Source of the DNA: a phage
Sequence record: NC_107013.1
Length of the DNA stretch: 41,265 nt
Reading direction: 5' to 3' (one strand)
A model generated the notes under the pieces. That model was not told where the DNA came from, made no database searches, and saw nothing but the letters and a program-made list of their open reading frames with translations. Position 1 is the stretch's first letter, and each line of letters opens with the position of its first letter. The translations under genes were made by a program, and so were the position numbers. Of the stretch, positions 6,037-23,500 are shown piece by piece.

Positions 6037-6073
6037 TAGTATGCTATTAACTTTAGCGCCACAGGGTTTATCT

Positions 6074-7578: not shown

Positions 7579-7583
7579 ACTGA

Positions 7584-7604: not shown

Positions 7605-7667
7605 GTGCCTGTGATTATTCCAGTTATTCCACTCAATTGTAAATGTTGGAATAAACTATTCGAATAG

Positions 7668-7696: not shown

Positions 7697-7699
7697 CCA

Positions 7700-7810: not shown

Positions 7811-7875
7811 CTTGTGTAAAAAGTAACTGGTTTACTGAGATTACGCCGTTTCTATGTTTAAATGATAAGGACTAG

Positions 7876-7905
7876 CGCCCCGCTTTAAGGCGGGGCTTTA
7901 CTTAT
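7876..7905 (+). terminator. Intrinsic terminator/attenuator downstream of element copy 1
   Basis: GCCCCGC-TTTAAG-GCGGGGC hairpin then TTTACTTAT. Confidence 0.45.
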
Positions 7906-7920
7906 CGAGAAAGGGGAAAC

Positions 7921-8307
7921 ATGAATCTTAAAGCAACTGTCGTAGCGGGAGCATGTTTCATCATCCTGGCTTACGCACACGGCATCTACCAGTATCGCAG
8001 CGGCTGGAACGGAGGCCGGGCGAATCTCGTTTCTCAGCAACAGCAGAAAGCACAGGCTGAGTTAGCTAAGAAAACACAACGGCAGCAGCAGGATGAATCG
8101 AAGGCCGCCGCCGCTGATAACGAAGGCAAGACGAAATCAGAGGTAATCACCCGTGAAGTCGTTAAGTACATTAAAACGCCTGGCCGCAGCGTGTGCACTT
8201 TTGACCCTGAGCGCGTGCAGCTCAAGTCCCGCGCCGTCGCAAACGCCAATTCCATCCCCGGATACGACGATGATGCAGCCGCCGTGCAAACTGGCACTGC
8301 CAAGTAA
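7921..8307 (+). CDS. i-spanin (Rz-like): N-terminal TM, Gln/Ala/Lys-rich predicted helix, periplasmic Cys
   Basis: GAAAGGGG RBS; TM VVAGACFIILAYAHGIY; Rz-like architecture; contains an overlapped lipoprotein gene. Confidence 0.6.
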   Translation: MNLKATVVAGACFIILAYAHGIYQYRSGWNGGRANLVSQQQQKAQAELAKKTQRQQQDESKAAAADNEGKTKSEVITREVVKYIKTPGRSVCTFDPERVQLKSRAVANANSIPGYDDDAAAVQTGTAK

Positions 8308-8416
8308 CGACGCGGACGAGGATTTAGCTATTGACGTCCAGAACGCAGAATGTGTACGGCAACTGAGACTTAAAGTGTTCATGTTGCAGGATTACGTGAG
8401 GAATATTCTGGAATAG
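8153..8416 (+). CDS. o-spanin (Rz1-like) outer-membrane lipoprotein, overlapped with the i-spanin in the +1 frame
   Basis: GTG start with AGAGG RBS; signal peptide with lipobox LTLSAC; proline-rich mature part. Confidence 0.55.
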   Translation: MKSLSTLKRLAAACALLTLSACSSSPAPSQTPIPSPDTTMMQPPCKLALPSNDADEDLAIDVQNAECVRQLRLKVFMLQDYVRNILE

Positions 8417-8427
8417 TTGCCTTGTAT

Positions 8428-8473
8428 GTTGGAATAATTTATTCTTGACATGTAAATCCGGGTGGCCCGGATT
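8428..8473 (+). promoter_or_regulatory. Regulatory region: palindrome GAATAATTTATTC, -35-like TTGACA, then perfect inverted repeat AATCCGGG-TGG-CCCGGATT
   Basis: Inverted repeats read directly; no good -10 at the expected spacing. Confidence 0.3.
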
Positions 8474-8495
8474 CCAACGTCCAGGGGACATACTG

Positions 8496-9122
8496 ATGAG
8501 CGAAGAAGTGAAAGACGAAACTATCGAACAACAAGAGACTAAGACCACGTTTACCAAAGAAGAAGTTGACGCGCTGGTATCCGGTCTTAAAGCTAACAAC
8601 GAGAAGCTCTTGTCTGAAAAGAAAGCTGCTGCCGCTGCTGCGAAAGAAGCCGCAGATGCGAAGCTGAAAGCCGAACAGGAACGCGCAAAACAGAACGGCG
8701 AACTTGAGGCATTCGAGAAAACGTTGCGCAGTCAGTATGAGCCAGTACTCGCCGAGAAAGACGGTAAGATTAGCAAAATGGCTGAGCGTATCCTCGGCGC
8801 AGAACGTAAATCAGTTATCAGCCAGTTGTCTGGCATGTTGATTGATGAGAGCGCAGCGGATATTATCGCTATGATGGTCAAGACCGAATTTGACGGCGAT
8901 GACGTTGTGACCAAGTTCACAGGTGCAGATGGTAATGTCATCACCACCGACGCAGAGCAATTTAAAAAGTATCTGCGTGAGCACAAAGCATTTTCGCATC
9001 TGATTAAAGCAGATGCAGCAACCGGCGGCGGGGCTTCCGGTAACAAAAATTCTACTGGCGGGGCCGGTGGTGCGGACGTAATCCAGCAAAAACTTAACGC
9101 CAAATACGGCAAACGAGGATAA
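8496..9122 (+). CDS. Scaffolding protein (putative)
   Basis: Acidic, Ala/Lys/Glu-rich ORF directly upstream of the major capsid gene. Confidence 0.55.
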   Translation: MSEEVKDETIEQQETKTTFTKEEVDALVSGLKANNEKLLSEKKAAAAAAKEAADAKLKAEQERAKQNGELEAFEKTLRSQYEPVLAEKDGKISKMAERILGAERKSVISQLSGMLIDESAADIIAMMVKTEFDGDDVVTKFTGADGNVITTDAEQFKKYLREHKAFSHLIKADAATGGGASGNKNSTGGAGGADVIQQKLNAKYGKRG

Positions 9123-9128
9123 CAGAAT

Positions 9129-10097
9129 ATGTCTCTGTCAGATATGAAGGTTTATAACGACGATATCGTCGGTACCACTATCGAACTGCTTGGTCAGAAA
9201 ACTGACCAGTTTAACGCAGCCTCCGGTGGCGCAATTGTACTGTCTACCGCTTCATGGCGCGGTGACTTCTCCCGTGAGTCTTTCTTTAACCAGATTGCCT
9301 CCGCTAAACGCCGCGTTGACCGTTACGCCGCTATCGCGTCTCAGGCAGCTACCGCGCTGACTCAGGGCGAGCGTGTAGGCGTTAAAGTCGCTGGCGGCTT
9401 CGGACCGGTACTGTTCGAGCCTGCGCAAATGACCTGGCTGAACGAAGACCCGGCGAGCGCGATTCGTGCTATCTCCGAAGGGTTCTCTGACGCACTGTTA
9501 GCTGACCAGCTTAACACCGCTGTTGGTGCCGCCGTTGCCGCGGTATCAGGTCAGACTGCACTGGTTAACGATGTATCCGCGACCGCTGGCTTGTCCCTGA
9601 ACGTGCTGAACAACAGCCACGCTAAATTCGGCGACCAGTCTCAGTTGTTGGTCACTGACATCATGACCGGTGCTGCTTATCACACGCTGGTAGATAAAGC
9701 GCTGACTAACGCGAACCAGCTGTTCGTTGCCGGTAACGTTATGGTTGTCGATGTTCTCGGCAAGCGTTACGTAATCTCTGACATTCCTGCGCTGTACGAG
9801 GCCGGTACTCCGAACAAGACTAAGGTTCTGTCCGTAGTTGCGAACGGCATCATCGTTGATAATGCTTCTGACATTATCAGCAACATTGACACCAGCAACG
9901 GTAACACCCGCATCCAGACCACCTGGCAGGCGGACTACAGCTTCGGCCTGAAACTGAAAGGCTACAGCTGGGACGTTACCAACGGCGGTAAATCTCCGCT
10001 GGACGCAGAACTGTTCACCGCGACTAACTGGGACAAAGCTGTTGCCGAGAACAAGCACACCCTCGGTACTCTGGCAATCGCCGACGCAGACCTGTAA
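9129..10097 (+). CDS. Major capsid protein
   Basis: 322-aa ORF after scaffold, followed by a strong terminator. Confidence 0.7.
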   Translation: MSLSDMKVYNDDIVGTTIELLGQKTDQFNAASGGAIVLSTASWRGDFSRESFFNQIASAKRRVDRYAAIASQAATALTQGERVGVKVAGGFGPVLFEPAQMTWLNEDPASAIRAISEGFSDALLADQLNTAVGAAVAAVSGQTALVNDVSATAGLSLNVLNNSHAKFGDQSQLLVTDIMTGAAYHTLVDKALTNANQLFVAGNVMVVDVLGKRYVISDIPALYEAGTPNKTKVLSVVANGIIVDNASDIISNIDTSNGNTRIQTTWQADYSFGLKLKGYSWDVTNGGKSPLDAELFTATNWDKAVAENKHTLGTLAIADADL

Positions 10098-10116
10098 CAC
10101 GGTTAGTAGTAAAAAC

Positions 10117-10139
10117 AAAGGGGCTTCGGCCCCTTTTTA
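10117..10139 (+). terminator. Strong rho-independent terminator after the capsid gene
   Basis: GGGGC-TTCG-GCCCC hairpin plus TTTTT. Confidence 0.7.
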
Positions 10140-10155
10140 CTAGGAGAAATTAAAG

Positions 10156-10323
10156 TGGAAATTAAATACGTACCAATGCCAATTACCATCGAGCAGAAGC
10201 GCGAGTATAACCGTCAGGGGTTCCGTGTGGTAGATGCTCGTTTCGCACCAGAAGGCACCGTGGTAGAATCGGCTAAAGAAGAGACACCACGCCGCCAGCG
10301 CCGGGCGAAATCAGAGGAATAAT
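10156..10323 (+). CDS. Hypothetical small basic protein
   Basis: AGGAG RBS then GTG; ORF below the 60-aa track cut-off. Confidence 0.3.
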
Positions 10324-10325
10324 TT

Positions 10326-10838
10326 ATGCCGCTAATCGTGGAAGATGGGTCGATAGTACCTGATGCCGACAGTTACGTTAGTCTGGCCGACGCCCGCGCG
10401 TTAGCGGCTAATTACGGTCTTGTGTTGCCGGCAGACGATACCGCCGCAGAGGTGGCCCTGCGCAACGGTGCTACTTATGTTGGGCTTGCAGAACCTCAGA
10501 TGTGCGGGCGTCGCGTATCCGCTGAACAGTCTCTGGCGTACCCACGTACAGGAACAACACTAAACGGCTTCACCGTAGCGGATAATGTTATCCCGTCGCA
10601 GTTAATCCGGGCACAAGTAATCGCTGCGGTTACGTATGGTGCGGGTACCGATGTTCGGGCTAACTCAGATGGGCGTTCCGTGCAGACTGAGCGTGTTGAG
10701 GGTGCTGTGACAGTGACATACTTCAACAACGGCAACAGTGGCGCCACAACCGCTATTACCGCTGCGGACGACGCATTACGCCCGTTACTGTGTGGTGGTC
10801 TTAACAATGGCTTCTCGTTTAACGTGTACCGGGGTTAA
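10326..10838 (+). CDS. Head-tail connector / head completion protein (putative)
   Basis: GAGGA RBS; position immediately after the capsid gene. Confidence 0.45.
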   Translation: MPLIVEDGSIVPDADSYVSLADARALAANYGLVLPADDTAAEVALRNGATYVGLAEPQMCGRRVSAEQSLAYPRTGTTLNGFTVADNVIPSQLIRAQVIAAVTYGAGTDVRANSDGRSVQTERVEGAVTVTYFNNGNSGATTAITAADDALRPLLCGGLNNGFSFNVYRG

Positions 10839-10840
10839 AA

Positions 10841-11455
10841 ATGGCGAAGACTAAAACAGAGATGTTCACCCTTATCGGGACAAATCTCGCCGATAATACA
10901 ACTGGCGCTATAACCCCTGAGTTGTTGCGCGAGGTAAATACCCAGTTAGCGGACTCCATGCTTTACGCTGCATCCGGTGTTAAAGAGGTAGAAGTTCTCC
11001 GTGCCACGTCAACCGTGGCGCAAGCGCCTACCGCAGTAGATACAGCGTTACAGTTAACTTTCGGGGCTGCGCAGGGAGGCGCGTCTAACCCGGTAATGAT
11101 TAATGCCGCAGGGCTTGTTACATTCAACACCGCGGGTAACTACGCCGTTCGCATCAAGTTACAGGCGAGGCGTACTGGCGCTAGTGGGACATCAATCCTG
11201 CTATCACGTATTTTAGTAAACGGTGCTCAGTACGGCTCTCCCGCAGCAACTAAGCTGGTAAGCGCCGACATAACAATTCCTATTGAGTCCCGCGTTGTTA
11301 TTAGCCCAACCGCAGGCCAGACGTTTGCCGTTCATATTATGCGGGATAGCTCCGGGGCTAACTTTGGTGGCGTATATCCGCAAGTTGCTACCGTAACCGC
11401 ATGGGGTACAGCACCATCCGCATTACTGGTTATTTCGAGACTGGAGGCCGCTTGA
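10841..11455 (+). CDS. Virion structural protein (unknown role)
   Basis: Coupled to the upstream gene in the structural operon. Confidence 0.4.
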   Translation: MAKTKTEMFTLIGTNLADNTTGAITPELLREVNTQLADSMLYAASGVKEVEVLRATSTVAQAPTAVDTALQLTFGAAQGGASNPVMINAAGLVTFNTAGNYAVRIKLQARRTGASGTSILLSRILVNGAQYGSPAATKLVSADITIPIESRVVISPTAGQTFAVHIMRDSSGANFGGVYPQVATVTAWGTAPSALLVISRLEAA

Positions 11456-11549
11456 TGAATAAGTTCACATGTGGTGTAGTTTTTGGTTTTCTTACCGCGG
11501 TAGTCTTGCACAGTTACGGTGTTCTTTTGACGCTGCAAGAGGTGCTAAA

Positions 11550-11909
11550 ATGAGCACCGCTTTCAGTAAACGTATGCAAGGCGTGGGTACGCGCCTGCTA
11601 ACCAAATTCGGTAGCACGGTATCTCTGATTCGCGCTGGTTCAAAAGTATGGGATGAAGTTCTCGGTGAGTACGTCTGGTCTGCGGATGAAGTGTTGCCGT
11701 TGAAGGCCGTTCCGGTTCCGGTAAACGCGGGACTGGTAAACGGTACGACGATTCAGGCTGGCGACATGATTGTTAAAGCCGATTACAGCGTCGTTCCGAA
11801 GATGGAAGACAAGGTGCAATTCGGCGGCGAGCAATGGTCCATCGTAGCTATTGAGAAGAAGATGGTTAACGATGACGTCGTGGCGTACTTTATTCAGGTG
11901 AGAAAATGA
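11550..11909 (+). CDS. Head-tail joining protein (putative)
   Basis: AAGAGG RBS before ATG 11550. Confidence 0.4.
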   Translation: MSTAFSKRMQGVGTRLLTKFGSTVSLIRAGSKVWDEVLGEYVWSADEVLPLKAVPVPVNAGLVNGTTIQAGDMIVKADYSVVPKMEDKVQFGGEQWSIVAIEKKMVNDDVVAYFIQVRK

Positions 11910-12301
11910 GTTTCGCGCTCGATGTCTCTAAGTTCGTGGAAAAGGCGAAGAAGAACCCTGAGAAGGTGATGCGTCGGGTGTCTATCAAGCTGTTTTCCGC
12001 TATTATAAAGGCGAGTCCGGTAGACACGGGCCGCTTTCGTATGAACTGGATGGCATCTGGCGGTACTCCTGCTTCCGGGATTACGGACGCTACGGATAAA
12101 TCAGGAAACACAGCAACCGGAAACGCTACGAGTTTCGTGCTGAAAGCCGCTGACTGGCATGAGTTCACGCTGACAAATAATCTGCCGTATGCGCAACGGC
12201 TGGAGTATGGTTGGTCGCAACAGGCGCCAGCCGGGGTTGTCAGGACTAATGTGTCTCGCTTCCAGCAACTCATTAACGAAGAAGCCAACAAGGTGAAATG
12301 A
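11906..12301 (+). CDS. HK97 gp10-like head-tail joining / tail completion protein
   Basis: Motif PVDTGRFRMNW resembles the HK97 gp10 family signature; ATGA coupling. Confidence 0.45.
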   Translation: MSFALDVSKFVEKAKKNPEKVMRRVSIKLFSAIIKASPVDTGRFRMNWMASGGTPASGITDATDKSGNTATGNATSFVLKAADWHEFTLTNNLPYAQRLEYGWSQQAPAGVVRTNVSRFQQLINEEANKVK

Positions 12302-12714
12302 TGGGCTACTTTGAGGACTTAACAAAAGCGTTCGATGTTCCGCTGGTAGCCTTCGGAACCGCCAACGGCATCAAGGTCGCGCTTGAAAACATCGACGCGC
12401 CGACGTCAACCGATACGCCATATCTGGCAAGTTACATGTTACTGGCGGATACCGAGCAAGCAGATTTGTTCTTCACGGAACAACGCGCGGGTGTTTATCA
12501 GGTCGACATTAACTACGCATCGGTGAAAGGTAGCGCGCCAATCAATAAAATGGCAGACTTACTTAACACGGCATTCAAAGCAGGTAAGTCATTTTCTCGT
12601 AACGACATCTGCGCCGAGGTTCAATCGGTTAGCCTGGGGCCGCTGATTGTAGAAAACGGATGGGCCAAACGACCATTGTCAATTAACTTTATTGCATTCA
12701 CCAAGAGGCTGTGA
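12298..12714 (+). CDS. Tail terminator / tail completion protein (putative)
   Basis: Position before the major tail gene. Confidence 0.4.
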   Translation: MMGYFEDLTKAFDVPLVAFGTANGIKVALENIDAPTSTDTPYLASYMLLADTEQADLFFTEQRAGVYQVDINYASVKGSAPINKMADLLNTAFKAGKSFSRNDICAEVQSVSLGPLIVENGWAKRPLSINFIAFTKRL

Positions 12715-12716
12715 AT

Positions 12717-13883
12717 ATGGCTACAACTCCTTTTAAGGGCGCGAATACTGCGCAATTCTATGTGGCAGAAACTACCCCCGGCGTAACACCGACTAACCCG
12801 GTCTGGTCGCCATTGCGTAACACAGGTGGCGTTCCTGCCATTACCCGCGACACGCTGACCTCCAACGAACTGGACGGCAGCCGTGAAACTACGTCAATCC
12901 GCACCGGTAACAAGCAGGTTAGCGGAGAATACGCTATTGAGCTTAGCTCGAAAAGCCAGGACGACTGGCTGGCGGGTGCTTTAGGCTCTACATGGCAATC
13001 CGGTAGTTCTCTGACCGGGCTATCAATTACCGTCGCGCCTGCAGGCAAGACCTTTACCCGTGCCGAAGGTAGCTTTATTTCTGACGGCGTTGAAGTGGGC
13101 GACCTGATTGCGTTTACCGACTTAACCGGTGACAACGCAAAACCGTTTATCGTAACTGCAGTAGAGGCGCTGGTAGTGACCGGGGCGGGTATCCAGCATA
13201 CCCTGACCACAGAGACAGTAACTACCGCCGCTAAGACAGGGGATAAACTGGAAACGGGAAGCCAGTGCAAGACGTTCTCTATTCTCACCTGGTACAAAGG
13301 CCAGTGCGGCGGGACTGACGCGTACACACTAACCAAAGGCGTGGAAGTTTCTGGTTTTACCATCGAACAGGCTGTTAACGCTATGGTAACTGGCAGCTTC
13401 CCGTTCATCGGTCGCAGTCAGGAGATTCTCACCACGCAGCCGTCTGGTTCTGATTTCTCCTCTGTTACGTTTGGTGACGAGCCATTCTCCTCGGTCGATG
13501 TTTCTGTGTTCGACGGTTCTACGCCGTTGCGTTGCGACAGCCTGACCATCACCAACGACAACAGCGCGTCCGCACAGTTCGAACTCGGCAACACTAACGT
13601 AGCGTTTGTGGAGCGTAGCCGAGCAGCTAACACCTTCTCCATCTCCGGTAAGCTGTACGACATGGCGATGATTCAGAAGTTTATCAACGAGCAGCAGGTG
13701 GAGATTAACTCTATTCTGGCTGGGGTAAACGGGGCTATGTCTTTCAGTTTGAAACGTGCAGAACTTACGGCGGTTACACCTGAGATTGGAGGACCTGAGT
13801 CAATCACTCAGTCTATTGAAGGTCAGGCTACTGGCAACCAGTACCAGTCGTCTATTGTTATTCAGCGTATCACATACGCATAA
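12717..13883 (+). CDS. Major tail protein (putative)
   Basis: AGAGG RBS before ATG 12717; Thr/Ser/Gly-rich 389-aa ORF at the expected position. Confidence 0.55.
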   Translation: MATTPFKGANTAQFYVAETTPGVTPTNPVWSPLRNTGGVPAITRDTLTSNELDGSRETTSIRTGNKQVSGEYAIELSSKSQDDWLAGALGSTWQSGSSLTGLSITVAPAGKTFTRAEGSFISDGVEVGDLIAFTDLTGDNAKPFIVTAVEALVVTGAGIQHTLTTETVTTAAKTGDKLETGSQCKTFSILTWYKGQCGGTDAYTLTKGVEVSGFTIEQAVNAMVTGSFPFIGRSQEILTTQPSGSDFSSVTFGDEPFSSVDVSVFDGSTPLRCDSLTITNDNSASAQFELGNTNVAFVERSRAANTFSISGKLYDMAMIQKFINEQQVEINSILAGVNGAMSFSLKRAELTAVTPEIGGPESITQSIEGQATGNQYQSSIVIQRITYA

Positions 13884-13887: not shown

Positions 13888-13912
13888 AAGGCCCCGTTTG
13901 GGGCCTTTTTCT
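13888..13912. terminator. Bidirectional terminator at a convergent junction
   Basis: GGCCCC-GTTT-GGGGCC hairpin flanked by A-run upstream and T-run downstream; near-identical to 26459-26484. Confidence 0.65.
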
Positions 13913-14466
13913 TACAAACCTAATCTTAAAGCAATGCCTATAGCGTTCGATTTAACGTAACCCGGTATGATGTAGGTGTCATAATCTTTTACACCATTAA
14001 TATCGTACAGGTAACCGCGGCTGTCCCCTTCAAACGTATGGCCGTCTCTGTGCAAGCGGACGATTCTCACATCATGCCCCGCGGCAACGATAGGGGCTAC
14101 TTCGCTGGCGAACCCGCCATCAGACACCACAAAAACTTCGTCGCCGTCGGGCAAGTTTCCGGCAAGATACTTACCGAAATAATCATCACCGAATACCGGT
14201 TTAATGAATTGCTCGGAAATGGCAATCATGAACTGACGCCGAGACAACCCGTTAAGGAAACCCTCTGGCTTTTCTTTCCGCGCCCGGTCGTCGTAGCCGT
14301 CGAGAAACTCGCGGTAAGCATCCTGGCCTAACGCAGCCATAGCAATATTGAACATCGGATTCTTGAAACTGGCGACACCCTTCGCAAAGCCCATTTCTAC
14401 CAGCGCCCTAGCAAGTGTGTCTTTCCCGCAGCCCGCAGGACCATTAAGAATAATTACCTTAGCCAT
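13912..14466 (-). CDS. P-loop kinase, dNMP-kinase-like (T4 gp1-type GKDT motif)
   Basis: Walker A NGPAGCGKDT; TAATG coupling to upstream gene. Confidence 0.55.
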   Translation of the reverse strand: MAKVIILNGPAGCGKDTLARALVEMGFAKGVASFKNPMFNIAMAALGQDAYREFLDGYDDRARKEKPEGFLNGLSRRQFMIAISEQFIKPVFGDDYFGKYLAGNLPDGDEVFVVSDGGFASEVAPIVAAGHDVRIVRLHRDGHTFEGDSRGYLYDINGVKDYDTYIIPGYVKSNAIGIALRLGL

Positions 14467-14951
14467 TATTTATCACTCCCATGTGGTTTTAAGTGTGTAG
14501 AGTTCCCGTTACAGTCGTATTCAGTAACTGCGTGAGTGGTTATGCCGAGTTCGCGGAAATGCTTTATTACCGCTGGAGAGTCGTCGAATGCACACAAGAT
14601 TCTCTCCGGCCCAATAGCACGCAACACCTCTTCTTTAATTACGATGTCTTTTCTGTTGTCGTGTTTGCTGCGCATGATTAACTGATAAAATTCGACGCGG
14701 TGGCGCTGCAACCACATTCTGGTTTCTTTTTCCGCGTCATCACTACGGCCTGTTAAGATAATAACGGCATAGCGACGATTAAGGGCGTTACACAGTTCGA
14801 TGTTATCTTTAATGGGTGCATCGTCTTTGCACGCCATGTTAAATGGTTTCCACGCCCAGGTTTCGCCGTAGTTATCTTTCGGCAGCAGGTGTAAACGATG
14901 AGTACCATCTGCCAATGTCCCGTCTAAATCGAAAATCACAATATCTTTCAT
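14466..14951 (-). CDS. HAD-superfamily phosphatase
   Basis: N-terminal FDLDGTL motif; further HAD-like Asp motifs. Confidence 0.65.
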   Translation of the reverse strand: MKDIVIFDLDGTLADGTHRLHLLPKDNYGETWAWKPFNMACKDDAPIKDNIELCNALNRRYAVIILTGRSDDAEKETRMWLQRHRVEFYQLIMRSKHDNRKDIVIKEEVLRAIGPERILCAFDDSPAVIKHFRELGITTHAVTEYDCNGNSTHLKPHGSDK

Positions 14952-16078
14952 CCAAGCATCTCCGGTGAAATAGTTAAACGTGCGACCTCGCCATATTCGG
15001 CGCTATAAGTAATTACGTTTGCACTGCGGCCAGACATCCACCCACCGCGGGAGGCATATGCATCTTTAGCCGCGAGAGTGCGGTGTTGCTCAACAATCAT
15101 GTTACGGCTTTCTACAATCTTTTGGTGGTGCAGGTGACCCACGTGGGCGTAGCTGTAAACACTCTCGCCGAACGCTTTGCGGAACTTGGCGATCATAACC
15201 GGTTCGATAGCGTCGAATCGTGCTTTATGCCCATGATGGAAGAACAGCGTCGTTTTGCCGTGTTGCACCATCTTGTAAACATCCGGCGACGTATCGACGA
15301 ACACACGCGGCTCATTGTCGTACAGCGTACTAAACATCTCAGCTAACCAAATCATTCCGCTTTCGTCGTGGTTACCTTGCACGATAAGCAAGCGAACATT
15401 TTTATGTTTAACGAGAGCCATATCAATGACACGGCGGACCATACGAATCATGTAGCGTACAAGTTTCTGATAGCGGGTGTCAGCGTCAAGAACATGACCA
15501 CTGGCAGGTGTAACGGCGTCCAGACTATCGAAATGCGCAAGGTCGCCCAGCAGATTAATAACTCCTGTTCCGGCATCCGGTGCTTTCTGGAACGCTGCGT
15601 CGAACCAGCGGGAGAACAGGTCTTCCGCAATCTTCATGTCCCAGTCGTCTCCGCTCTCGTCAGCCCAGGCCAGCATACCGAGATGGAAATCAGACACAGT
15701 GTAAAGGTTGAGTAGATTGTCGTCTCGTTTGGCGCGAACGGCTTTAACAGGTGCAACTGGTGTAATCTCCGACTTCATGCCTTCGATTACGGCTTTCATC
15801 AATTCAACCTGACGTTCGGCATCGGTGTCGGTCTTAACCCATTGCAACTTGGTGTTGCCAAACTCATCCACCAGTGATGACGTTCCTTTAATCTTGTAGC
15901 CGTCCGGTACAAGGTAACTAACGTCACGCCCGTGGCCTACACCTTTCTTAGCCAGCTTCGCTTTACGGATACGAATAACGCGGTCGGAGATGCCGTATTT
16001 ACGGGCGATGTCGATATTCTTCATACCGGCGTTCAATTCTTCCTGTAACTGTTCGTCGGTTATTTTCTTCCTGGCCAT
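14948..16078 (-). CDS. Calcineurin-like metallophosphoesterase with N-terminal HTH
   Basis: Motifs DFH, GDLAHFD, GNHDE, HHGH, GHLHH; N-terminal NIDIARKYGISDRVIRIRK. Confidence 0.7.
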   Translation of the reverse strand: MARKKITDEQLQEELNAGMKNIDIARKYGISDRVIRIRKAKLAKKGVGHGRDVSYLVPDGYKIKGTSSLVDEFGNTKLQWVKTDTDAERQVELMKAVIEGMKSEITPVAPVKAVRAKRDDNLLNLYTVSDFHLGMLAWADESGDDWDMKIAEDLFSRWFDAAFQKAPDAGTGVINLLGDLAHFDSLDAVTPASGHVLDADTRYQKLVRYMIRMVRRVIDMALVKHKNVRLLIVQGNHDESGMIWLAEMFSTLYDNEPRVFVDTSPDVYKMVQHGKTTLFFHHGHKARFDAIEPVMIAKFRKAFGESVYSYAHVGHLHHQKIVESRNMIVEQHRTLAAKDAYASRGGWMSGRSANVITYSAEYGEVARLTISPEMLG

Positions 16079-16115
16079 GCTTATTCCTCGTGTTTAGGAT
16101 TTGTCCTATACTAGC

Positions 16116-16307
16116 TCACTTCTCTTTGACATTCGAGTTGCACGCCCAGATTAAGATAAATACCCACGGCAGCAGAACCCAACCAAGAAACAGATTAGCC
16201 ATGAATATCGCTAACTTCGCTTTATGGTTACGGAAGTACGCAACCAGGAAAGGCGCGAAATAAGCGAGCAGTGCAAACAGAATTAAGGAAACTGGTAAAC
16301 TGGACAT
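16116..16307 (-). CDS. Superinfection-immunity (Imm-like) small membrane protein
   Basis: Two TM segments with YF...N-LFLGW...LIWA pattern; AAGGGG RBS before internal ATG (16307). Confidence 0.55.
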   Translation of the reverse strand: MSSLPVSLILFALLAYFAPFLVAYFRNHKAKLAIFMANLFLGWVLLPWVFILIWACNSNVKEK

Positions 16308-16337
16308 TTTAAACCCCTTCATTGTTGGTGTAAGTGA

Positions 16338-16366
16338 ATAGTACCCTATTATATTGGGGTGTGCAA
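16338..16366 (-). promoter_or_regulatory. Class II promoter TTGCAC-N17-TACTAT with conserved spacer, upstream of the Imm-like gene
   Basis: 33-bp near-identity to the plus-strand promoter at 38351-38383. Confidence 0.5.
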
Positions 16367-16381
16367 GTAATGTGATAGAAT
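16354..16381 (+). promoter_or_regulatory. Putative promoter (TTGGGG-N16-TGaTAGAAT) for the tail operon, back-to-back with the minus promoter
   Basis: TG-extended -10; location upstream of the chaperone/tape-measure genes. Confidence 0.3.
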
Positions 16382-16474
16382 AAGTTTGCGCCTAGTGTCG
16401 CACACGAAAAGCGGGTGGTTCCCGTCTGGCGCATTTATCGTTAACCTGTAACCTCTTAACCAAAGGATTAAAGA

Positions 16475-16891
16475 ATGAAACTTTCTGATTTTTATTTCGA
16501 AGAGAAAGCACTGGTAGGCAAGAAGATGCCCATTCTGCTGCCAAACGGCGAAGACTCCGGTGAATGGCTTAACGTTGTAAGTCCCGATGCGGATGTCGCC
16601 GTTAAAGCGGGGCGTGCTTTCATTATTGCGTACCGTCGCGGACTGGCGCGTTTCGAAGAACTGGAAAAAGCCGCCAAAGAATCCGGCGACTATACTGAAT
16701 ATAACCTGGCTATTAACGAACTGGCGGAAGGCCTCAACCGGCAACTCGCGGCAGAAGTCGTAAACGGCTGGAGCTTTGATGAGCCTTTCTCTAAAGAAGC
16801 ATTTAACAAATTGCTGGACCAGTTCAAGGCATTAGGCACACAGGTAGCAGCGTTCCATAACGCTGAGCGCAAAGCATTACAGGAAAAGTAG
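16475..16891 (+). CDS. Tail assembly chaperone (putative, by position)
   Basis: AAAGGA RBS; acidic 138-aa protein two genes upstream of the tape measure. Confidence 0.4.
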   Translation: MKLSDFYFEEKALVGKKMPILLPNGEDSGEWLNVVSPDADVAVKAGRAFIIAYRRGLARFEELEKAAKESGDYTEYNLAINELAEGLNRQLAAEVVNGWSFDEPFSKEAFNKLLDQFKALGTQVAAFHNAERKALQEK

Positions 16892-16923
16892 ACGCGCTGT
16901 ACAGGTTCGCCACCTATGAGTTT

Positions 16924-17256
16924 GTGGATAAGCATAAAATCAGAGAGTTTGATTCTATAGCCGACGGACACGAACAGGCGCTTATCGCGATGGGTGTAAT
17001 CGATAAGAAAAAACGTGCAGCGCGACGGGGTGGGCCAGAATGCCCGCCCCTTTTTATATCCACCTTCGAGACGTACTGCGACATTAAGTTTACGCGACAC
17101 GTGCGCGAGGACGCTGTAGTATTGTTTGCAAGAGAATCCGTTACGTGGCAAGACCTGAAAGCCTATCTCGATGTTACGCAAAAACAGCTTAGCCTGTTCG
17201 AGATAGACATTATCATGGGCTTAGAAGCAATCTTTGAAGGTAGAAATCATGGCTGA
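16924..17256 (+). CDS. Hypothetical protein (possible second chaperone component); start uncertain
   Basis: ORF in -1 frame relative to 16475..16891; stop overlaps tape-measure start; no canonical slippery heptamer seen. Confidence 0.35.
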   Translation: MDKHKIREFDSIADGHEQALIAMGVIDKKKRAARRGGPECPPLFISTFETYCDIKFTRHVREDAVVLFARESVTWQDLKAYLDVTQKQLSLFEIDIIMGLEAIFEGRNHG

Positions 17257-19522
17257 TACCGCTAGCTTGATAGTACGAGTATCTTCGACCGGCGTCGATA
17301 AAACCACATCACAACTGAACGGGCTTACCAAAGCCGCAGGTGCTGCCGCGGCTGCCATTGTCAGTCTGGAAACCGCCAAACAGGTGTTCAGTGCGCTGGT
17401 GGACTCTCAGCGCAACTTCGATAAGCTGAATTCCGGCCTCATCACAATGACCGGAAGCGCCGAGAACGCGGCTAAGGCTTTCAGCGTCCTGCAACAGTTC
17501 GCAAAAGAAACCCCGTATGGCCTCAATCAGGCGGTAGAGGGTTTCACTAAACTTGTAGCCCTCGGCCTGAATCCCAGCAAAGAGGCGTTAATCTCCTACG
17601 GCAACACCGCGGCGGCTATGGGTAAAGACCTTAATCAGATGATTGAGGCTGTGGCTGACGCCAGTACCTTTGAGTTTGAGCGGCTGAAAGAGTTCGGCAT
17701 TAAGTCTTCCCAACAGGCAGATACCGTTTCGTTCACGTTCCGCGGCGTAACGACTACCGTTAAGAAGAACTCCGAAGAGATTCAGAAATACCTGCTAAAC
17801 ATCGGCAACACTGATTTCGCCGGAGCTATGGAGACGCGTTCGAAGACCTTAGATGGCCAGTTGTCGAGCCTCGCCGACTCCTTCGATGGTCTTGTTCTTG
17901 CGGTAGCGCAATCCGGTTTTGGTGACGCCGTAGGTGAGCAAGCCGCGAAGGCAGAAGACGCTATTTCGGCACTCACCGACGCCATTGCGTCTAATGAGAT
18001 AGCCGCCACGCTCCAGGATTGGGTGACACTGTTCAATGAGTCGTTCAAGTTTATTTCTGATGCCCTGAATGACCTGGCATACGACACCGAGGACAAATCC
18101 GTTGATATGTCAGACTCGCTGGGGGCTATACCTGATGCTATCCGTGAGTGGTTGCCTGACATTCAGCAGACGTTCCACGAGGTTATTGCGTGGTTCCAGC
18201 GCATTGACGATTACGCTGTAGCGTTAGGTCAGACCCTTGCTGATGTGTTTGACCCGAGCAAAACGGCAGCGCTCACATTTAAAAACCTGACCGCAGAGGC
18301 TGACGCCGCATACGCCGCCAGCATAAAACGCGCAGCGGCGGAATCCCAGGCCATTACCGACAGGTCTAAGCAGCGTAAGAAAGAAATTGAGGAACAGCGC
18401 AAGCAGTATGACGAGCGCAAGAAGCAAGAAATTGACTTAGCCAGCCTTGTTAATAAAAAGGGCGGAACTGGCGGCACCGGAAACGCCGACGATAAAGCGG
18501 CAAAAGCCGCCGCTAAGAAGGCGGAGCAATTGCGCAATCAGGCGCAAGATTACCTCGACACTTTGGCCCGTCAGAACAACGACGAGTTAAAGGCTATTGA
18601 CGCCCAGGAACAGCAGAAACTGGCTAAAGCAAAAGAGTTTTACAGCCAGGGCGCGTTGTCTCTGAAAGAATACGAGCAAGCAAAAACGGCTATTGTCCTT
18701 GAAGCAGGGCAAAAACGGCAAGATGAACTGGATAAACGTCAGAAAGAAGCCCAGGAAAAGCAGCAGAAAGGCGACGACTTCATGACTCAAATTATGGGCC
18801 AGAATGCCACTGAGCTTGAGCTTCTCGATATCCAGGAACAGCAGAAACTGGCGGTAGCTGATAAGTACCGCGAGCAGGGTCTGATTAAAGAGGAACAGTA
18901 TCAAGCGGCACTTAACGCCATCAACGAGCAATACGCCACCAAGCGTGCTGAGGCAACGGCAACGGCCTTTGGTAACATGGCCTCAAATATCGGGTCCGCG
19001 TTGGGCGAGGCTTCTGGCGCGTATAAGGCATTCGCTATCGTACAGGCCACTATCGCCACGTACACCGCAGCTATTGAAGCGTATAAGTCAACGGCCGCTA
19101 TCCCTGTTGTTGGTCCGTTCCTGGCACCTGTAGCCGCTGCTGCTGCCGTTGGGGCGGGTATGGCGCAGATTTCCGCTATCAGGTCCGCCCGTGAACAAGG
19201 CGGTCAGTTATCTGCGGGGCAGGCTTCTACTATCGCCGAACGTGGTAAACCAGAAGTTATCATGCCCGCGGGCGCATCGCGTGTTCGCACTGCACAGCAG
19301 ATGAAAGAAATTATGGGGCAAAACGGCGGCGGTACCGGGCCGGCCAATATCAGCATTATAAATAACACCAGCGCACAAATTGGCAACACCAGCGTTGAAC
19401 AGGACGAAGAAGGCCGTTTGCGTATCATCATAGAGGAGCAAGTTGCTGCTTCGCTGCAGAATAGTAACAGCAAAATATCGAAAGCTAGGAAGGCTACAAG
19501 AAACGCACCAGGCTTTAAGTGA
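17249..19522 (+). CDS. Tail tape measure protein
   Basis: 757 aa, Ala/Gln/Lys-rich predicted helical protein with Gly-rich C-terminus, upstream of distal tail genes. Confidence 0.8.
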   Translation: MADTASLIVRVSSTGVDKTTSQLNGLTKAAGAAAAAIVSLETAKQVFSALVDSQRNFDKLNSGLITMTGSAENAAKAFSVLQQFAKETPYGLNQAVEGFTKLVALGLNPSKEALISYGNTAAAMGKDLNQMIEAVADASTFEFERLKEFGIKSSQQADTVSFTFRGVTTTVKKNSEEIQKYLLNIGNTDFAGAMETRSKTLDGQLSSLADSFDGLVLAVAQSGFGDAVGEQAAKAEDAISALTDAIASNEIAATLQDWVTLFNESFKFISDALNDLAYDTEDKSVDMSDSLGAIPDAIREWLPDIQQTFHEVIAWFQRIDDYAVALGQTLADVFDPSKTAALTFKNLTAEADAAYAASIKRAAAESQAITDRSKQRKKEIEEQRKQYDERKKQEIDLASLVNKKGGTGGTGNADDKAAKAAAKKAEQLRNQAQDYLDTLARQNNDELKAIDAQEQQKLAKAKEFYSQGALSLKEYEQAKTAIVLEAGQKRQDELDKRQKEAQEKQQKGDDFMTQIMGQNATELELLDIQEQQKLAVADKYREQGLIKEEQYQAALNAINEQYATKRAEATATAFGNMASNIGSALGEASGAYKAFAIVQATIATYTAAIEAYKSTAAIPVVGPFLAPVAAAAAVGAGMAQISAIRSAREQGGQLSAGQASTIAERGKPEVIMPAGASRVRTAQQMKEIMGQNGGGTGPANISIINNTSAQIGNTSVEQDEEGRLRIIIEEQVAASLQNSNSKISKARKATRNAPGFK

Positions 19523-19567
19523 TAATATGGGTGTTAGGTTAACATCCAATCTATCGAGGTTCAAATA

Positions 19568-20068
19568 ATGAGCGACTTATATTTCCCACGTAGCCTTAAG
19601 CCGGTGGTGTCAAAAGGCTACTCAATGACCAGACGTAACAACGTCTGGAGCGTCGATTTAGCTGGCGGAGGTGTACGTCAGGGGCGCGACACGTATTACG
19701 ACGTGTTCCCGATAAGCGTAACCCTGATTACATCGGCGCTAGGACGGCAGGCGTTTCTGTCGTTCCTTGAGAAAGTCGATGGCGGTGCGTCAAGTTTCTG
19801 GATGGCACATGACTTCGGCATGGGTATCGAGGATTACCAGGTAACAATCACGTCAACCATCGCTGAGTCCACCGAAGACGGGATTAACTGGACAATTACT
19901 TTCACGGCAACCGCTGAGAAATCGCCGTTCCAGGATCTTGAGAACCAGTGCCTGATTAACAATCTGCCGGATTTGTACGGTTGCTATGGTGACGGGCTGG
20001 GGTGTTTCCTTAAAGCCTACGGAACTGCACAATCAACGTTTCCACGAATTTGGGACCCGATGCAATGA
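19568..20068 (+). CDS. Minor tail protein (putative distal tail component)
   Basis: Position immediately after the tape measure. Confidence 0.5.
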   Translation: MSDLYFPRSLKPVVSKGYSMTRRNNVWSVDLAGGGVRQGRDTYYDVFPISVTLITSALGRQAFLSFLEKVDGGASSFWMAHDFGMGIEDYQVTITSTIAESTEDGINWTITFTATAEKSPFQDLENQCLINNLPDLYGCYGDGLGCFLKAYGTAQSTFPRIWDPMQ

Positions 20069-20580
20069 GCCAGGAATCAGTAGAAGCAGCCTATCGCCGT
20101 AAGCTGGCGTCTAACCCGGACGGCGAGATGGACTACGTAACGTTGCAAATCAGCCACCCGTTGCTGTCGAAGACGTACTATCTTGTGCGCGGGCTGCAGG
20201 AACTTACGGCGACACTGGAAACCGGCGAAACTATCACATTCGAACCAACCCCGATGGAAGCGTCGGGGGCTTCTAACAACAGTGATATGGACCAGACTAC
20301 CACGTTTACTCTACCGGATATTCTCAATCAACTGGATGATGAGATGGATAAAATCCCGATGAGTAACACCGAGTTGCCGAAATTCGTCTTCCGCCGTTAT
20401 GTCAGTACCGACCTGTCTTATCCGGCGGACGGCCCTGTCGTGTACGAGTTACAGGCTATCAACCAGGAGAAAGGCGAGTTCTCCGCAGATGTCGGTACAC
20501 CTATGCTGAACCAACGGAGCACTGGTATACTGATGACACCTAAAGAGATACCGTTATTGCGCGGCCTGTTGACCACATGA
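20065..20580 (+). CDS. Minor tail protein (putative)
   Basis: ATGA coupling; position. Confidence 0.45.
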   Translation: MSQESVEAAYRRKLASNPDGEMDYVTLQISHPLLSKTYYLVRGLQELTATLETGETITFEPTPMEASGASNNSDMDQTTTFTLPDILNQLDDEMDKIPMSNTELPKFVFRRYVSTDLSYPADGPVVYELQAINQEKGEFSADVGTPMLNQRSTGILMTPKEIPLLRGLLTT

Positions 20581-20942
20581 ATATTAACGACTACACGGGA
20601 ATACCTTACGACTTTCGCAAACGTAATTGCTGGCACCATGTGCGCATTGTCCGCGCGGATGCCGGGTTAGAAACCCCGGCGTTCGACGTTACAAGCCCAA
20701 CGGCAATTAACGACGCGTTTGACGAAGGCCACCGCAACACGAAGGGGCTTACGAAAATTGATAAGCCTGAAAACTTCTGTGCGGTGCTTATGGGGTATCG
20801 CCGAGGCGGTCGTATTGTGTGGCACGCGGGAGTTTACTTCGACGGGATGGTTAGCCATTGCGAACTTGCTTCACGTCAGGTACGGCTGGACAGGCTGGCG
20901 GACCTCAGAGACACGTACACGGAGATTGAATTTTGGCGATAA
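20577..20942 (+). CDS. Tail assembly protein with NlpC/P60-like Cys/His motifs
   Basis: Candidate catalytic Cys in NCWHHV and His in HAGVYFDG. Confidence 0.55.
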   Translation: MNINDYTGIPYDFRKRNCWHHVRIVRADAGLETPAFDVTSPTAINDAFDEGHRNTKGLTKIDKPENFCAVLMGYRRGGRIVWHAGVYFDGMVSHCELASRQVRLDRLADLRDTYTEIEFWR

Positions 20943-20998
20943 TTCTGCACTACACGCGAAACGCTGATGGCGCTTTCGGCCGTACAAAACACGTCGGG

Positions 20999-23488
20999 AT
21001 GCCGATGGAGTTTGTCGTTAGTCGTATCCCTGACGGCGTGCCGGTGCGCGTCTACCTCGGTGAGATTGGCGATGATACAGACGTAACGGACGACTTCGAC
21101 GCGCTTAAAGATGAAGACGCTGTGTACCACATTATTGAGGGTGCGGGTAGCGGGGCGCTCGGTGCGGTTAGTAAGGTGTTTGGTTTTATCCTTAAGCCAA
21201 TCGCCAAGTTGTTTGGCCTGAACACGGCCGCCAACGCCAACTACACGGCGACTAACAACCAGACAACATCACCAAATAACAGCCTCACAGACCGCTCAAA
21301 CAAGCCACGCCCTTACGAGCGCTCCTATGACATCTGCGGGACTGTGCAGACAATCCCTAATGACCTGATGCAGACGTATAAGGCGTTCAACTCCACTGGT
21401 GCTTTGCTGGAGTATTCGTACTATGACGCAGGGCGCGGACATCTGCATATTGAGGCTGATGGCGTCACAGAGGGCGACACCCTGATAAGCGACATCACAG
21501 GTTCATCTGTTGCCGTATATGCGCCGTATACGTCACCGAACAACACCGCATCTCCGCAACTACAAATCGGCGACGTCATTGACCAGAAACTCTATGTGAC
21601 ATACTCCAACGACGACGTTGACGGTATTGTGCTGAAAGCGCCAAACGACATCGGAGCTAACCCAAGCGCCGACGGCACAGCTAAACGTATTTCAAACACT
21701 GGCTACATCTATGATCCGTCAGGCGACTCTGCTTTTTCTGAGTTTCTTAGTGTTGGTGATGTCGCAGTGTTGAGCAATTTCGACGTTAAGGACGTCACTA
21801 ACCTGAACGGCTCGTTTGAAGTTTTATACGTCGACGACTTTGAGGTTCGGTTGTACGTCGGGGATATAGGTAACTGGGGCAACCTTAATAACGGAGAGAC
21901 TTACGCACTTACAGAGCGTTCGGATACGTTTATAGGCCCAAGCAACACCTATGACGTATCTCTTACGGACTGGTATTACATGGTGCGCGGAGAGGTTGAC
22001 CAGGTACTTGCTAACGTTGCCGGGCAGAACGGCCTCTACAAATACGACGGAGGCTATAACCGCACCAGTGTAACGGTGGAACTCCAGTACCAGATGATTG
22101 ATTCTCAGCGTAACCCGTTGAGCGATATTTACACGGTACAGGCCACAATTACAGGCAACAATACGGATTACGTCGGTACGTCTATCTACGGGCAATTGCC
22201 GACCGCGTCCCGTTTCCGCGCCCGTATGCGTCGTGTAACGAATTTTGATAAAGACTACGACGGAACGGTAAGCGACGAGATAACCTTTATCAACCTGTAT
22301 GGGCAGTCACTGGACACTACCTCACATTACGGCAACAGGACAACGGTGCATTGCGCCCGTAAACAGACGCCGCGTGCCGCCAGCATAGACAACCCGGAAC
22401 TGCGCATGATTGCAACCGAGATGTGTTACAAATACCTCGGCAATGGAGTATTCGATACAGTAATGACACCGAACACGCAAGCCGTACAATCTCTAATTCG
22501 ACTGGCGCGCGACCCCGCAGTAGGCAATCTGGAACTGACAACGGCAAACATGGACAAGTTACTTGCTGTGCAAGAAGAGATTGAGTCCTATTTCGGAAGT
22601 GAATTAGCGGGGCAGTTCTGCTACACGTTCGACGACTACGACACCACGATGCAGGACATCGTTCAGACTATAGCGGAAGCCGTGTTCTGTACTGCGTACC
22701 GTAAAGGCGCGGACATTATGCTGCGTTTCGACCGTCCGGTTGCTGGGCCCGAGATGGTGTTCACCCACCGCAGCAAAACTACTGGTACAGAGAAATGGAC
22801 GCGCACATTCAACGATTCTACGACCTACGATAGCCTGTCGTTCTCATACATCGACCCGGATACTAACGTACAGGAAACGATTTATATCCCGGAAGAACTC
22901 GGTGCAAATACGGAGGAATACGAATCGAAGGGCGTGCGCAACTACCGGCAGGCGTACTGGCTTGCGTGGCGTCGATATCAGCGCAATGCGTTAAGTAAAG
23001 TTGTCGTAGAGTTCGAAGCTACTGAAGAAGGTGCGCTCGCTACACCCGGCGGCGTAATCAGCGTGGTTAAAGGTTCACGTATTGCTCCGCAGGATGGTTA
23101 TGTTGTTGCCGTTAATGGGCTTATGCTGACGCTGTCGCAGCCTGTTACGTTTACCCCTGGCGATGACCACTCCATCATTCTTAAGAAGCGCGACGGCTCT
23201 GTGCAGAGTATCTCTGTTATCAAAGGAAGCCACGACCGCGAAGTGATTATGCTTTCTGCCCCAGAGGAAGCAATCTACACAGGGAATAGCGCACTAAAAA
23301 CTGAGTTTTCATTCGGCAACGAAGCAAGGCATAATGCTCAGAAGATAGTTGTTTCTTCAATCGACCCTGGCGACGACCGCACGGTCAAGATTACTGGCTA
23401 CAACTATGACGACGGATTCTACAAATACGACGGCGTCGCGCCATACGGCAGCGGTTTCTCCGACGGATTCAGCAATGGTTTTAATTAA
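20999..23488 (+). CDS. Tail tip / host-specificity protein (J-like central fibre); start ambiguous (TTG 20933 or ATG 20999)
   Basis: ~830-aa ORF after the K-like gene. Confidence 0.6.
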   Translation: MPMEFVVSRIPDGVPVRVYLGEIGDDTDVTDDFDALKDEDAVYHIIEGAGSGALGAVSKVFGFILKPIAKLFGLNTAANANYTATNNQTTSPNNSLTDRSNKPRPYERSYDICGTVQTIPNDLMQTYKAFNSTGALLEYSYYDAGRGHLHIEADGVTEGDTLISDITGSSVAVYAPYTSPNNTASPQLQIGDVIDQKLYVTYSNDDVDGIVLKAPNDIGANPSADGTAKRISNTGYIYDPSGDSAFSEFLSVGDVAVLSNFDVKDVTNLNGSFEVLYVDDFEVRLYVGDIGNWGNLNNGETYALTERSDTFIGPSNTYDVSLTDWYYMVRGEVDQVLANVAGQNGLYKYDGGYNRTSVTVELQYQMIDSQRNPLSDIYTVQATITGNNTDYVGTSIYGQLPTASRFRARMRRVTNFDKDYDGTVSDEITFINLYGQSLDTTSHYGNRTTVHCARKQTPRAASIDNPELRMIATEMCYKYLGNGVFDTVMTPNTQAVQSLIRLARDPAVGNLELTTANMDKLLAVQEEIESYFGSELAGQFCYTFDDYDTTMQDIVQTIAEAVFCTAYRKGADIMLRFDRPVAGPEMVFTHRSKTTGTEKWTRTFNDSTTYDSLSFSYIDPDTNVQETIYIPEELGANTEEYESKGVRNYRQAYWLAWRRYQRNALSKVVVEFEATEEGALATPGGVISVVKGSRIAPQDGYVVAVNGLMLTLSQPVTFTPGDDHSIILKKRDGSVQSISVIKGSHDREVIMLSAPEEAIYTGNSALKTEFSFGNEARHNAQKIVVSSIDPGDDRTVKITGYNYDDGFYKYDGVAPYGSGFSDGFSNGFN

Positions 23489-23500
23489 AGAGGACTCTAT

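Follow-up and report, generated by a model that had tools for sequence, protein, structure and literature searches.

Two stretches on opposite strands of a phage genome (sequence record NC_107013.1; 41,265 nucleotides, analysed whole and hereafter called the window) are nearly identical over 33 bp, which raises the question of whether a host promoter has simply been copied or whether some further factor reads both copies. The window is a nearly complete ~41-kb Kagunavirus genome (Guernseyvirinae, K1G-like siphoviruses), and its best match is Escherichia phage vB_EcoS_fKuEco01 (fKuEco01), with 97.7% identity in the 3-kb regions around the two copies, here sites 1 and 2. A sequence-only reading had taken these copies for "class II" promoters whose conserved spacer implies recognition by something beyond host sigma-70, and which would co-regulate a leftward Imm/phosphatase cassette and a rightward block of small genes. 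We found that the element links at least nine promoters, not two, and that it contains a 14-bp palindrome. Judging from the sequences, we give about even odds (a probability of roughly 0.5) to the interpretation that the sites are host-RNA-polymerase promoters and that every one of them carries an operator for a Cro-like repressor encoded by the phage, a 71-aa helix-turn-helix protein that we call HTH1.

The paired 33-mers and a third copy in the same frame

The 33-mer TTGCACACCCCAATATAATAGGGTACTATTCAC occurs exactly at site 1, and its counterpart at site 2, TTGCACGCCCCAACATAATAGGATACTATTCAC, agrees with it at 30/33 positions; 100 dinucleotide-preserving shuffles gave an expectation of 0.00 chance matches. 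The near-identity on opposite strands, with three differences, was thus confirmed, as was the interval 38351–38383 for site 2. At site 1 the 33-mer spans 16334–16366, and the interval first given (16338–16366) covers only the part from TTGCAC to TACTAT. When the two sites were aligned, identity ran over ~37 bp, from one base before TTGCAC to the TTA that follows TCAC, which corresponds to promoter positions of about −36 to +1, and the flanks on either side were unrelated. As far as sequence can indicate, the conserved block has the size and shape of a core promoter: TTGCAC, 17 nt, TACTAT and TCAC.

A third copy, site 3, keeps the frame TTGCAC-N17-TACTATTCA of sites 1 and 2 (Table 1). Taking hexamers 17 ± 1 bp apart as the mark of a −35/−10 pair, we read TTGCAC-17-TACTAT at all three sites, with TTG, A(−11) and T(−7) kept. 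Site 1 lies 12 bp before the Imm open reading frame (ORF), site 2 lies 22 bp before the ORF that begins at 38405, and site 3 lies 27 bp before the ATG at 39701. Promoter anatomy, upstream position and orientation all agree with the proposal that sites 1 and 2 are promoters facing the two gene blocks named above. The upstream half of the spacer, the non-palindromic ACCCCAAYAT, is common to sites 1 and 2 and is not present in site 3.

Two other readings of the −10 region were set aside. ATCACA-17-TATAAT at 16376–16348 matches 10/12 consensus positions at site 1, but sites 2 and 3 lack an equivalent −35, which also varies among site 1 orthologs, and we retained this reading only as a possible secondary start. 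A tandem −10, TATAAT-N4-TACTAT, was rejected on the variability of the three bases before AATAG (TAT, CAT, TAG, ATT, GTT, GTC).

A palindrome with conserved arms and a shifting register

The downstream half of the spacer and the −10 of sites 1 and 2 together form a 14-bp palindrome, AATAG-N4-CTATT. Allowing up to one mismatch, we found nine copies in the window against 1.1 expected, a number reached in 0/100 shuffles; they start at 6035, 7663, 16337, 29086, 32640, 34777, 34822, 38367 and 39658. The core TAATAGnnTACTATTCAC, with up to three mismatches, was found eight times (0.2 expected), and when all 5-N-5 palindromes were counted de novo, AATAG-N4-CTATT came first both in the window and in phage Golestan, GC-rich terminator hairpins aside. 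Eight of the nine palindromes are intergenic, the ninth stands at the extreme end of an ORF directly before the next gene, and all fall in predicted promoter regions. Beyond sites 1–3, these regions include three replication-module promoters, the promoter of the HTH1 gene itself and the region that precedes a head gene. A link exclusive to the Imm/phosphatase cassette and the small-gene block is consequently not supported, and any co-regulation would be genome-wide.

The position of the palindrome relative to the presumed polymerase contacts differs between promoters. At sites 1–3 it starts 10 nt after the −35, so that TACTAT lies inside it and the right arm overlaps the −10, whereas in the three replication promoters, which match 10–11/12 sigma-70 consensus positions, it starts 5–6 nt past the −35 and its last base is the first T of the −10. 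The site 1 ortholog in phage Jersey (Jerseyvirus) reads TTGCAT-N7-AATAGTGGCCTATT-AT, with the −10 read as TATTAT and the palindrome 7 nt after the −35. The palindrome thus slides by up to 6 bp with a constant internal geometry, and because its register varies it behaves as an element separate from the polymerase contacts. On this sequence pattern, the sliding register fits a putative independent protein-binding site overlapping the −10, and not a spacer feature read by sigma-70.

Orthologous sites gave a second line of evidence. To avoid selecting on the palindrome, we located these sites by flanking sequence alone and then read the 14-mer; the comparison drew on 37 Kagunavirus contigs that span the HTH1 region and 73 that span the region of the metallophosphoesterase gene. 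Across ~195 site instances in seven classes from Kagunavirus contigs, an arm was changed in 7, and in 47 the only departures from the most common 14-mer of the class lay in the centre. Variation fell at positions 6–9 of the 14-mer; at sites 1–3 (25 flank-anchored loci for site 1, 34 in Kagunavirus for site 2, and 29 with varying downstream genes for site 3) variation was limited to positions 6–7, since positions 8–9 are the TA of TACTAT. The copy before the HTH1 gene, which we call OR-like, was unchanged in 36/38 loci. In the replication class both arms lie within the spacer and were conserved as strongly as the hexamers. Sigma-70 places little sequence constraint on the spacer. Conserved arms around a drifting centre are the pattern of a 434-type operator.

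The argument from spacer to extra factor therefore needs to be divided between the two halves of the spacer. The downstream half bears it out, with its palindrome at nine sites and its stable arms around a drifting centre; the upstream half, ACCCCAAYAT, is confined to sites 1 and 2 and is better explained by descent and exchange. With this restriction, something beyond sigma-70 probably does read the spacer.

A different possibility is that the palindrome, having −10-like hexamers on either strand, forms the core of a bidirectional promoter; site 1 would then fire leftward into the Imm cassette and rightward into the tail operon, and no dedicated regulator would be involved. The tail operon, from 16475, does need its own promoter within 16323–16474, because it lies behind the minus-strand cassette and a strong bidirectional terminator at 13888–13907, and TTGGTG (16325–16330), 16 bases and TATTAT (16347–16352) can be read on the plus strand across the site 1 palindrome. 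The putative rightward −35 is, however, not conserved where the first leftward gene differs, most of the other sites have no opposite-strand gene to transcribe, and the replication-class sites lack a plus-strand −35, all of which makes this explanation improbable.

The core motif itself is already published, as PHIRE "promoters" in Golestan and fBC-Eco01. Supplementary Table S4 of the Golestan paper lists seven "conserved promoter sequences", among them TAATAGCGTACTATTCACTT (the site 1 ortholog), TAATAGGATACTATTCACTT (site 2) and GAATAGGCTACTATTCATTT (site 3), together with the two HTH1-proximal copies, placed before the DicA-like gene, and two more (PMC7203180); the list has no counterpart to the window's replication-class sites at 29086 and 32640. 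The fBC-Eco01 paper reports seven copies with the consensus tgAATAGTa-ccTATTat-T, the reverse complement of the window core, and assigns them to a "phage-encoded RNA polymerase" (PMC9825357). Both papers treat the 20-mer as a promoter, and the palindrome, the −35, the replication-promoter members and the link to a Cro-like gene are not remarked there. A full-text literature search for the core motif string gave nothing relevant among the matches listed.

The fBC-Eco01 assignment amounts to a T7-like arrangement, which the label "class II" also implies, and it accords with the detection of the motif by PHIRE as a repeated 20-mer, on which those authors name seven "phage RNAP promoters". We nevertheless regard it as extremely improbable. 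"Class II" is a T7 term that requires a phage RNA polymerase, and the label is inapplicable here because none is annotated in the close relatives fKuEco01 (49/72 features covered), Golestan or Jersey. Each window ORF longer than 400 aa matches the position of an fKuEco01 gene annotated with another function (terminase, portal, tape measure, tail protein, tailspike, helicase, DNA polymerase, nuclease, primase). Rather than a 23-bp T7-type consensus without a −35, the motif shows a standard −35/17/−10 frame, in which conservation reaches TTGCAC 17 bp upstream of the −10, and in the RefSeq record of Jersey the orthologs of the replication-class and rightward sites are labelled host promoters of the TTGACA(N15-18)TATAAT type.

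Several further dyads were seen in the course of this analysis. The interval 7579–7920 is ~340 bp of nearly non-coding DNA between two terminators, with direct TTATTCC repeats around 7616–7632, and it contains a perfect 16-bp palindrome, AACTATTCGAATAGTT, at 7654–7669, in which the operator arms stand in swapped order. At 961–996 on the plus strand, directly after a terminator, a post-endolysin promoter (TTGACT-17-TATATT) has its −35 inside a degenerate dyad, GCTAGTTGACTATT, which reads ACTAGTTGACTATT in most relatives and may be a weak operator or a coincidence. Golestan (L002) has at 38971 an extra AATAGGTTACTATT dyad without TTGCAC, with orthologs in L005, L006, L011, L017, L025 and L034 and none in the window; two direct repeats of GGTGTAACAGGT precede it and may represent a different regulatory input on the same operator.

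Table 1. Promoter sites, palindromes, candidate regulators and gene modules of the window (promoters are predicted from sequence).
Feature	Position	Strand	Remarks
Site 1, promoter of the leftward Imm / metallophosphoesterase / PNK-HAD / dNMP-kinase cassette	16334–16366	−	sequence-predicted
Site 1 parts	−35 TTGCAC 16366–16361; −10 TACTAT 16343–16338; palindrome AATAGGGTACTATT 16350–16337	−	17-nt spacer
Site 2, promoter of the rightward small-gene block	38351–38383	+	sequence-predicted; first ORF 38405–38602
Site 2 parts	−35 TTGCAC 38351–38356; −10 TACTAT 38374–38379; palindrome AATAGGATACTATT 38367–38380	+	
Site 3, TTGCACACTAAGATAGAATAAGCTACTATTCAT, upstream of a short ORF starting at 39701	39642–39674	+	25/33 positions match
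Site 3 palindrome	39658–39671	+	1 arm mismatch
OR-like site TAATATGGTACTATTCAC, before the Cro-like gene HTH1	34821–34838	+	no −35 match
OR-like site parts	−10 TACTAT 34829–34834; TGG 34826–34828 (extended −10); palindrome 34822–34835	+	1 mismatch in palindrome
OL-like site, leftward replication-module promoter	34772–34801	−	TTGACA-18-TATAGT
Internal replication-module promoter	32635–32663	−	TTGACA-17-TATAGT; palindrome 32640–32653; Jersey ortholog annotated as promoter
Internal replication-module promoter	29081–29109	−	TTGACG-17-TATAGT; palindrome 29086–29099; Jersey ortholog annotated as promoter
Weaker member TTATAGTATGCTATTAAC	6034–6051	+	palindrome 6035–6048, 1 mismatch; PHIRE site 1 in Golestan
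HTH1, 71-aa helix-turn-helix protein, candidate operator-binding repressor (434 Cro-like)	34866–35081	+	Pfam HTH_3, E = 9.7e-12
HTH2, 62-aa HTH_17 protein, rival candidate binder	37763–37951	−	Pfam HTH_17, E = 1.3e-8
Imm_superinfect gene, first gene downstream of site 1	16116–16322	−	Pfam PF14373, E = 8.9e-13
Lysis tail-end, small genes, terminase, head, tail tube	1–13883	+	
dNMP kinase, PNK/HAD phosphatase, metallophosphoesterase, Imm	13912–16322	−	
Tail module	16475–26455	+	
Replication module	26618–34740	−	
Primase-helicase and small genes, the last being HTH2	35099 to about 37951	−	
Small-gene block	38405 onward	+	

Candidate binders and the change of palindrome between genera

The candidate that we favour as the binder of the palindrome is HTH1. 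Its best solved relative is phage 434 Cro (E = 1.8e-6, residues 6–68 of 71 aligned), followed by the 434 repressor and then P22 C2, and the first glutamine of the recognition helix is kept. This helix reads SQGAINQLALG in 36/37 Kagunavirus loci (SQSAINQ in the remaining one), and it was the same in all the more distant homologs seen, which are only 74–77% identical overall. A protein search for homologs outside the subfamily gave only relatives of at least 74% identity on 30–45 kb Guernseyvirinae-like contigs, and no outgroup.

The divergent control region of HTH1 (34741–34865) holds two palindromes 45 bp apart, one over HTH1's own extended −10 and the other inside the opposing TTGACA-18-TATAGT promoter. 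In the first, the left arm reads AATAT, which creates the TGG-TACTAT extended −10; in the second, the palindrome AATAGCTAACTATT (34777–34790) fills the spacer and abuts the −10. Taken at the level of sequence, this is a Cro-like autoregulatory layout. As for two of the other members, the promoter at 29081–29109 sits at the 3′ end of a VRR-NUC ORF, and the weaker member at 6034–6051 lies just past the portal-gene terminator, upstream of the head-morphogenesis gene.

Comparison with the related genera showed that the palindrome is specific to lineage. With up to one mismatch, AATAG-N4-CTATT was observed seven times in Jersey (1.1 expected) and once in Salmonella phage FSL SP-031 (SP-031, a Cornellvirus; 0.85 expected), and there were no AATAG dyads in three further Cornellvirus-type contigs. 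SP-031 (L041) instead has an 18-bp palindrome, ATATTA-N6-TAATAT, which with up to two mismatches occurred nine times against 1.25 expected (at 3831, 7539, 14065, 14680, 17747, 22693, 25391, 26543 and 33279), in regions that correspond to those of the Kagunavirus sites, namely the divergent gap ahead of the tail chaperone gene, the internal replication promoters and the region after the portal gene. The window has three matches to this palindrome (1.14 expected), which is no excess, and all three are inside genes. When aligned on their centres, the Kagunavirus and Cornellvirus half-sites are related (ATAATAG vs ATATTAn). A host factor is an unlikely binder, and we favour a phage-encoded one, because Jersey and SP-031 share Salmonella as host and carry different palindromes. 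In Cornellvirus, a diverged HTH1 and a different palindrome are found together.

Under the interpretation that we favour, sites 1 and 2 would be copies of a single sigma-70-type module (TTGCAC, 17 bases, TACTAT), with transcription probably starting ~7 nt past TACTAT, in TCAC(T)T. The twofold-symmetric operator AATAG-N4-CTATT would be embedded at −19 to −6 of this module, and the same operator would recur in at least seven other promoter regions, at −25 to −12 in the three replication-module promoters. A dimer of HTH1 would bind the 5-bp arms, leaving the central 4 bp uncontacted, and, once bound, would block RNA polymerase from the −10 region. As HTH1 accumulated it would turn down a genome-wide set of promoters, its own included.

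A number of observations weigh against this interpretation. TTGCAC/TACTAT matches only 7/12 sigma-70 consensus positions and falls below the promoter-scan threshold, and every promoter call in these phages is a match to consensus; we found no experimental start-site mapping or binding data for them in the literature. At sites 1–3, conservation of the right arm is expected from promoter function alone because of its overlap with the −10. The HTH1 recognition helix in Jersey reads SQSLITH, against SQGAINQ in Kagunavirus, with identical arms, and it is closer to the TQSAISH of SP-031, which accompanies a different palindrome. SP-031 has no good copy of its own palindrome beside its HTH1 gene, and the lineage comparison covers three genera only. 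Because covariation between protein and site is imperfect, we treat HTH1 as the leading candidate for the binder, not as an established one.

Another phage protein might bind the palindrome instead, whether HTH2, which is an early HTH_17 protein, or a small early protein so far unrecognised. Such a binder could repress, or it could work like AlpA or Q, as a factor for RNA-polymerase loading or antitermination. The presence of HTH2 tracks the palindrome, in that HTH2 is found in palindrome-bearing Kagunavirus and Jerseyvirus loci and is absent from four Cornellvirus loci without the palindrome, and it is 78–82% identical between the genera that share the arms, vs ~50% for HTH1. The many intrinsic terminators between the genes of this genome also count in favour of such a binder. 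Yet two Kagunavirus contigs (L005 and L019) lack HTH2 and keep every palindrome, which weakens its candidacy, and the shifting position of the palindrome with respect to the −35 and −10 suits a polymerase-docking factor poorly. Excisionase-like domains of the HTH_17 type usually bind DNA as monomers and not at palindromes of the 5-N4-5 kind. We consider a binder other than HTH1 rather unlikely. In the two contigs (L005 12559–13144 and L019 3624–4209, ~ window 37554–37951), the HTH_17 gene and a 77-aa neighbour are replaced by genes for a 47-aa CxxC...CxxC (zinc-ribbon-like) protein and a 149-aa protein.

Some information on timing comes from a time-course RNA sequencing (RNA-seq) study of the Kagunavirus K1B4, the only such study for the genus, which provides timing classes at the level of genes (PMC12645636). 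In it, HTH2 (gene 008) is among four early genes and is the only annotated one of them, which speaks for HTH2, and the late class includes Imm (045), the methylases and DNA polymerase. Synchrony of that infection was poor, and phage reads reached 8.9% at their peak (PMC12645636).

Exchanged promoter modules, genome layout and known systems

The near-identity of the full 33-mer goes beyond what the palindrome accounts for, and here the history of the copies comes in. Sites 1 and 2 differ by two linked changes, T/C at −3 of the dyad and G/A in the dyad centre, which travel together across contigs. In 6 loci, site 1 carries the haplotype of site 2 (CAACAT...GGATA), and one locus shows the reverse, with the site-1 haplotype at site 2. 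The promoter and 5′ untranslated region are conserved past sites 1, 2 and 3, and the first gene differs between otherwise collinear Kagunavirus contigs (L003–L114); behind site 1, Imm is swapped for other ORFs in some of them. Golestan has a third copy of the 33-mer (L002 4879–4911, 31/33 positions), predicted to drive an extra minus-strand two-gene cassette at the position equivalent to window 7579–7920. A conserved promoter and leader before a changing first gene, together with exchanged haplotypes, indicate that the promoter modules act as mosaic junctions. On these comparisons, the near-identity appears best explained by shared ancestry and exchange between portable promoter modules, atop constraint on the hexamers and the dyad.

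These same observations, and the ACCCCAAYAT that sites 1 and 2 share outside the palindrome, also suit a simpler account, in which the sites are plain duplicated sigma-70 promoters that serve as portable junctions between gene cassettes: the 33-bp identity would reflect descent with recombination or gene conversion, the palindrome would be a by-product of AT-rich, −10-like sequence, and no extra factor would be involved. Plain duplication leaves unexplained, however, why AATAG and CTATT stay exactly 4 bp apart despite different spacers and registers, the TTGACA-type replication promoters included. It also leaves unexplained why the centre drifts between stable arms and why Cornellvirus has a different palindrome in equivalent regions. 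We think this account unlikely on balance, though it must be given some weight.

Combining the operator interpretation with this exchange leads to a broader picture, in which one 71-aa 434-Cro-like protein would govern most of the transcription programme of a strictly virulent siphovirus subfamily, with genus-specific operators in nearly every promoter, and in which operator-bearing cassettes would double as portable junctions for accessory-gene swaps and copy homogenisation. We offer this picture tentatively, as a possibility that we would not yet back.

With regard to the remaining features of the window, an identical 20-base hairpin, AAGGCCCCGTTTGGGGCCTT, occurs at 13888–13907 and 26460–26479 on opposite strands, in both cases at a convergent strand-switch junction. 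The first copy scores as a terminator in both directions, and the two hairpins are likely bidirectional terminators that insulate modules. An Rfam scan of the window gave 0 matches.

K1G-like and Jersey-like phages (Guernseyvirinae) are being widely isolated with therapy and biocontrol in view. If the operator interpretation is right, the published assignment of the motif to a "phage RNA polymerase" would be corrected, the subfamily would gain a compact regulatory map of about nine operator-bearing promoters and one candidate regulator, and the short conserved modules of promoter and 5′ untranslated region could be used as insertion points or parts for phage engineering.

How the element compares with known phage promoters depends on which of its features is considered. 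With the T7 class II and III promoters it shares only the idea of a repeated ~20–30 bp promoter; T7 promoters depend on a single-subunit RNA polymerase of the phage and on a 23-bp consensus that spans −17 to +6, and neither is found here. The likeness is greater to the T4 early, T5 and T7 A1–A3 promoters, which are likewise multiple, near-identical host-polymerase promoters with conservation beyond the two hexamers. In those early promoters, the extra conservation consists of UP-like or extended −10 features that raise promoter strength, whereas in the window it is a dyad that keeps no fixed register with the hexamers.

Repressor operators that overlap sigma-70 promoters are textbook phage biology, and what we describe would be an ordinary kind of phage gene switch, not a new principle. 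As in 434, P22 C2 and lambda Cro, the predicted operators overlap core promoters, and two stand in the regulator's own divergent control region. In phage 434 an operator measures 14 bp, of which the outer 5+5 bases are contacted and the outer 4+4 conserved, and the central 4 stay free of contacts (PMC1636474); the window palindrome, for which binding is a prediction, is likewise 14 bp and twofold symmetric, with 5+5 conserved outer and 4 free central positions. HTH1 resembles 434 Cro in length as well, at 71 aa, and over the aligned residues 6–68. The differences are that the half-site is AATAG, not ACAAG; that the phage is virulent, with no CI partner or integrase annotated; that the control region has two predicted operators 45 bp apart, not three adjacent ones; and that predicted operators lie over at least nine promoters genome-wide, not only at OL and OR.

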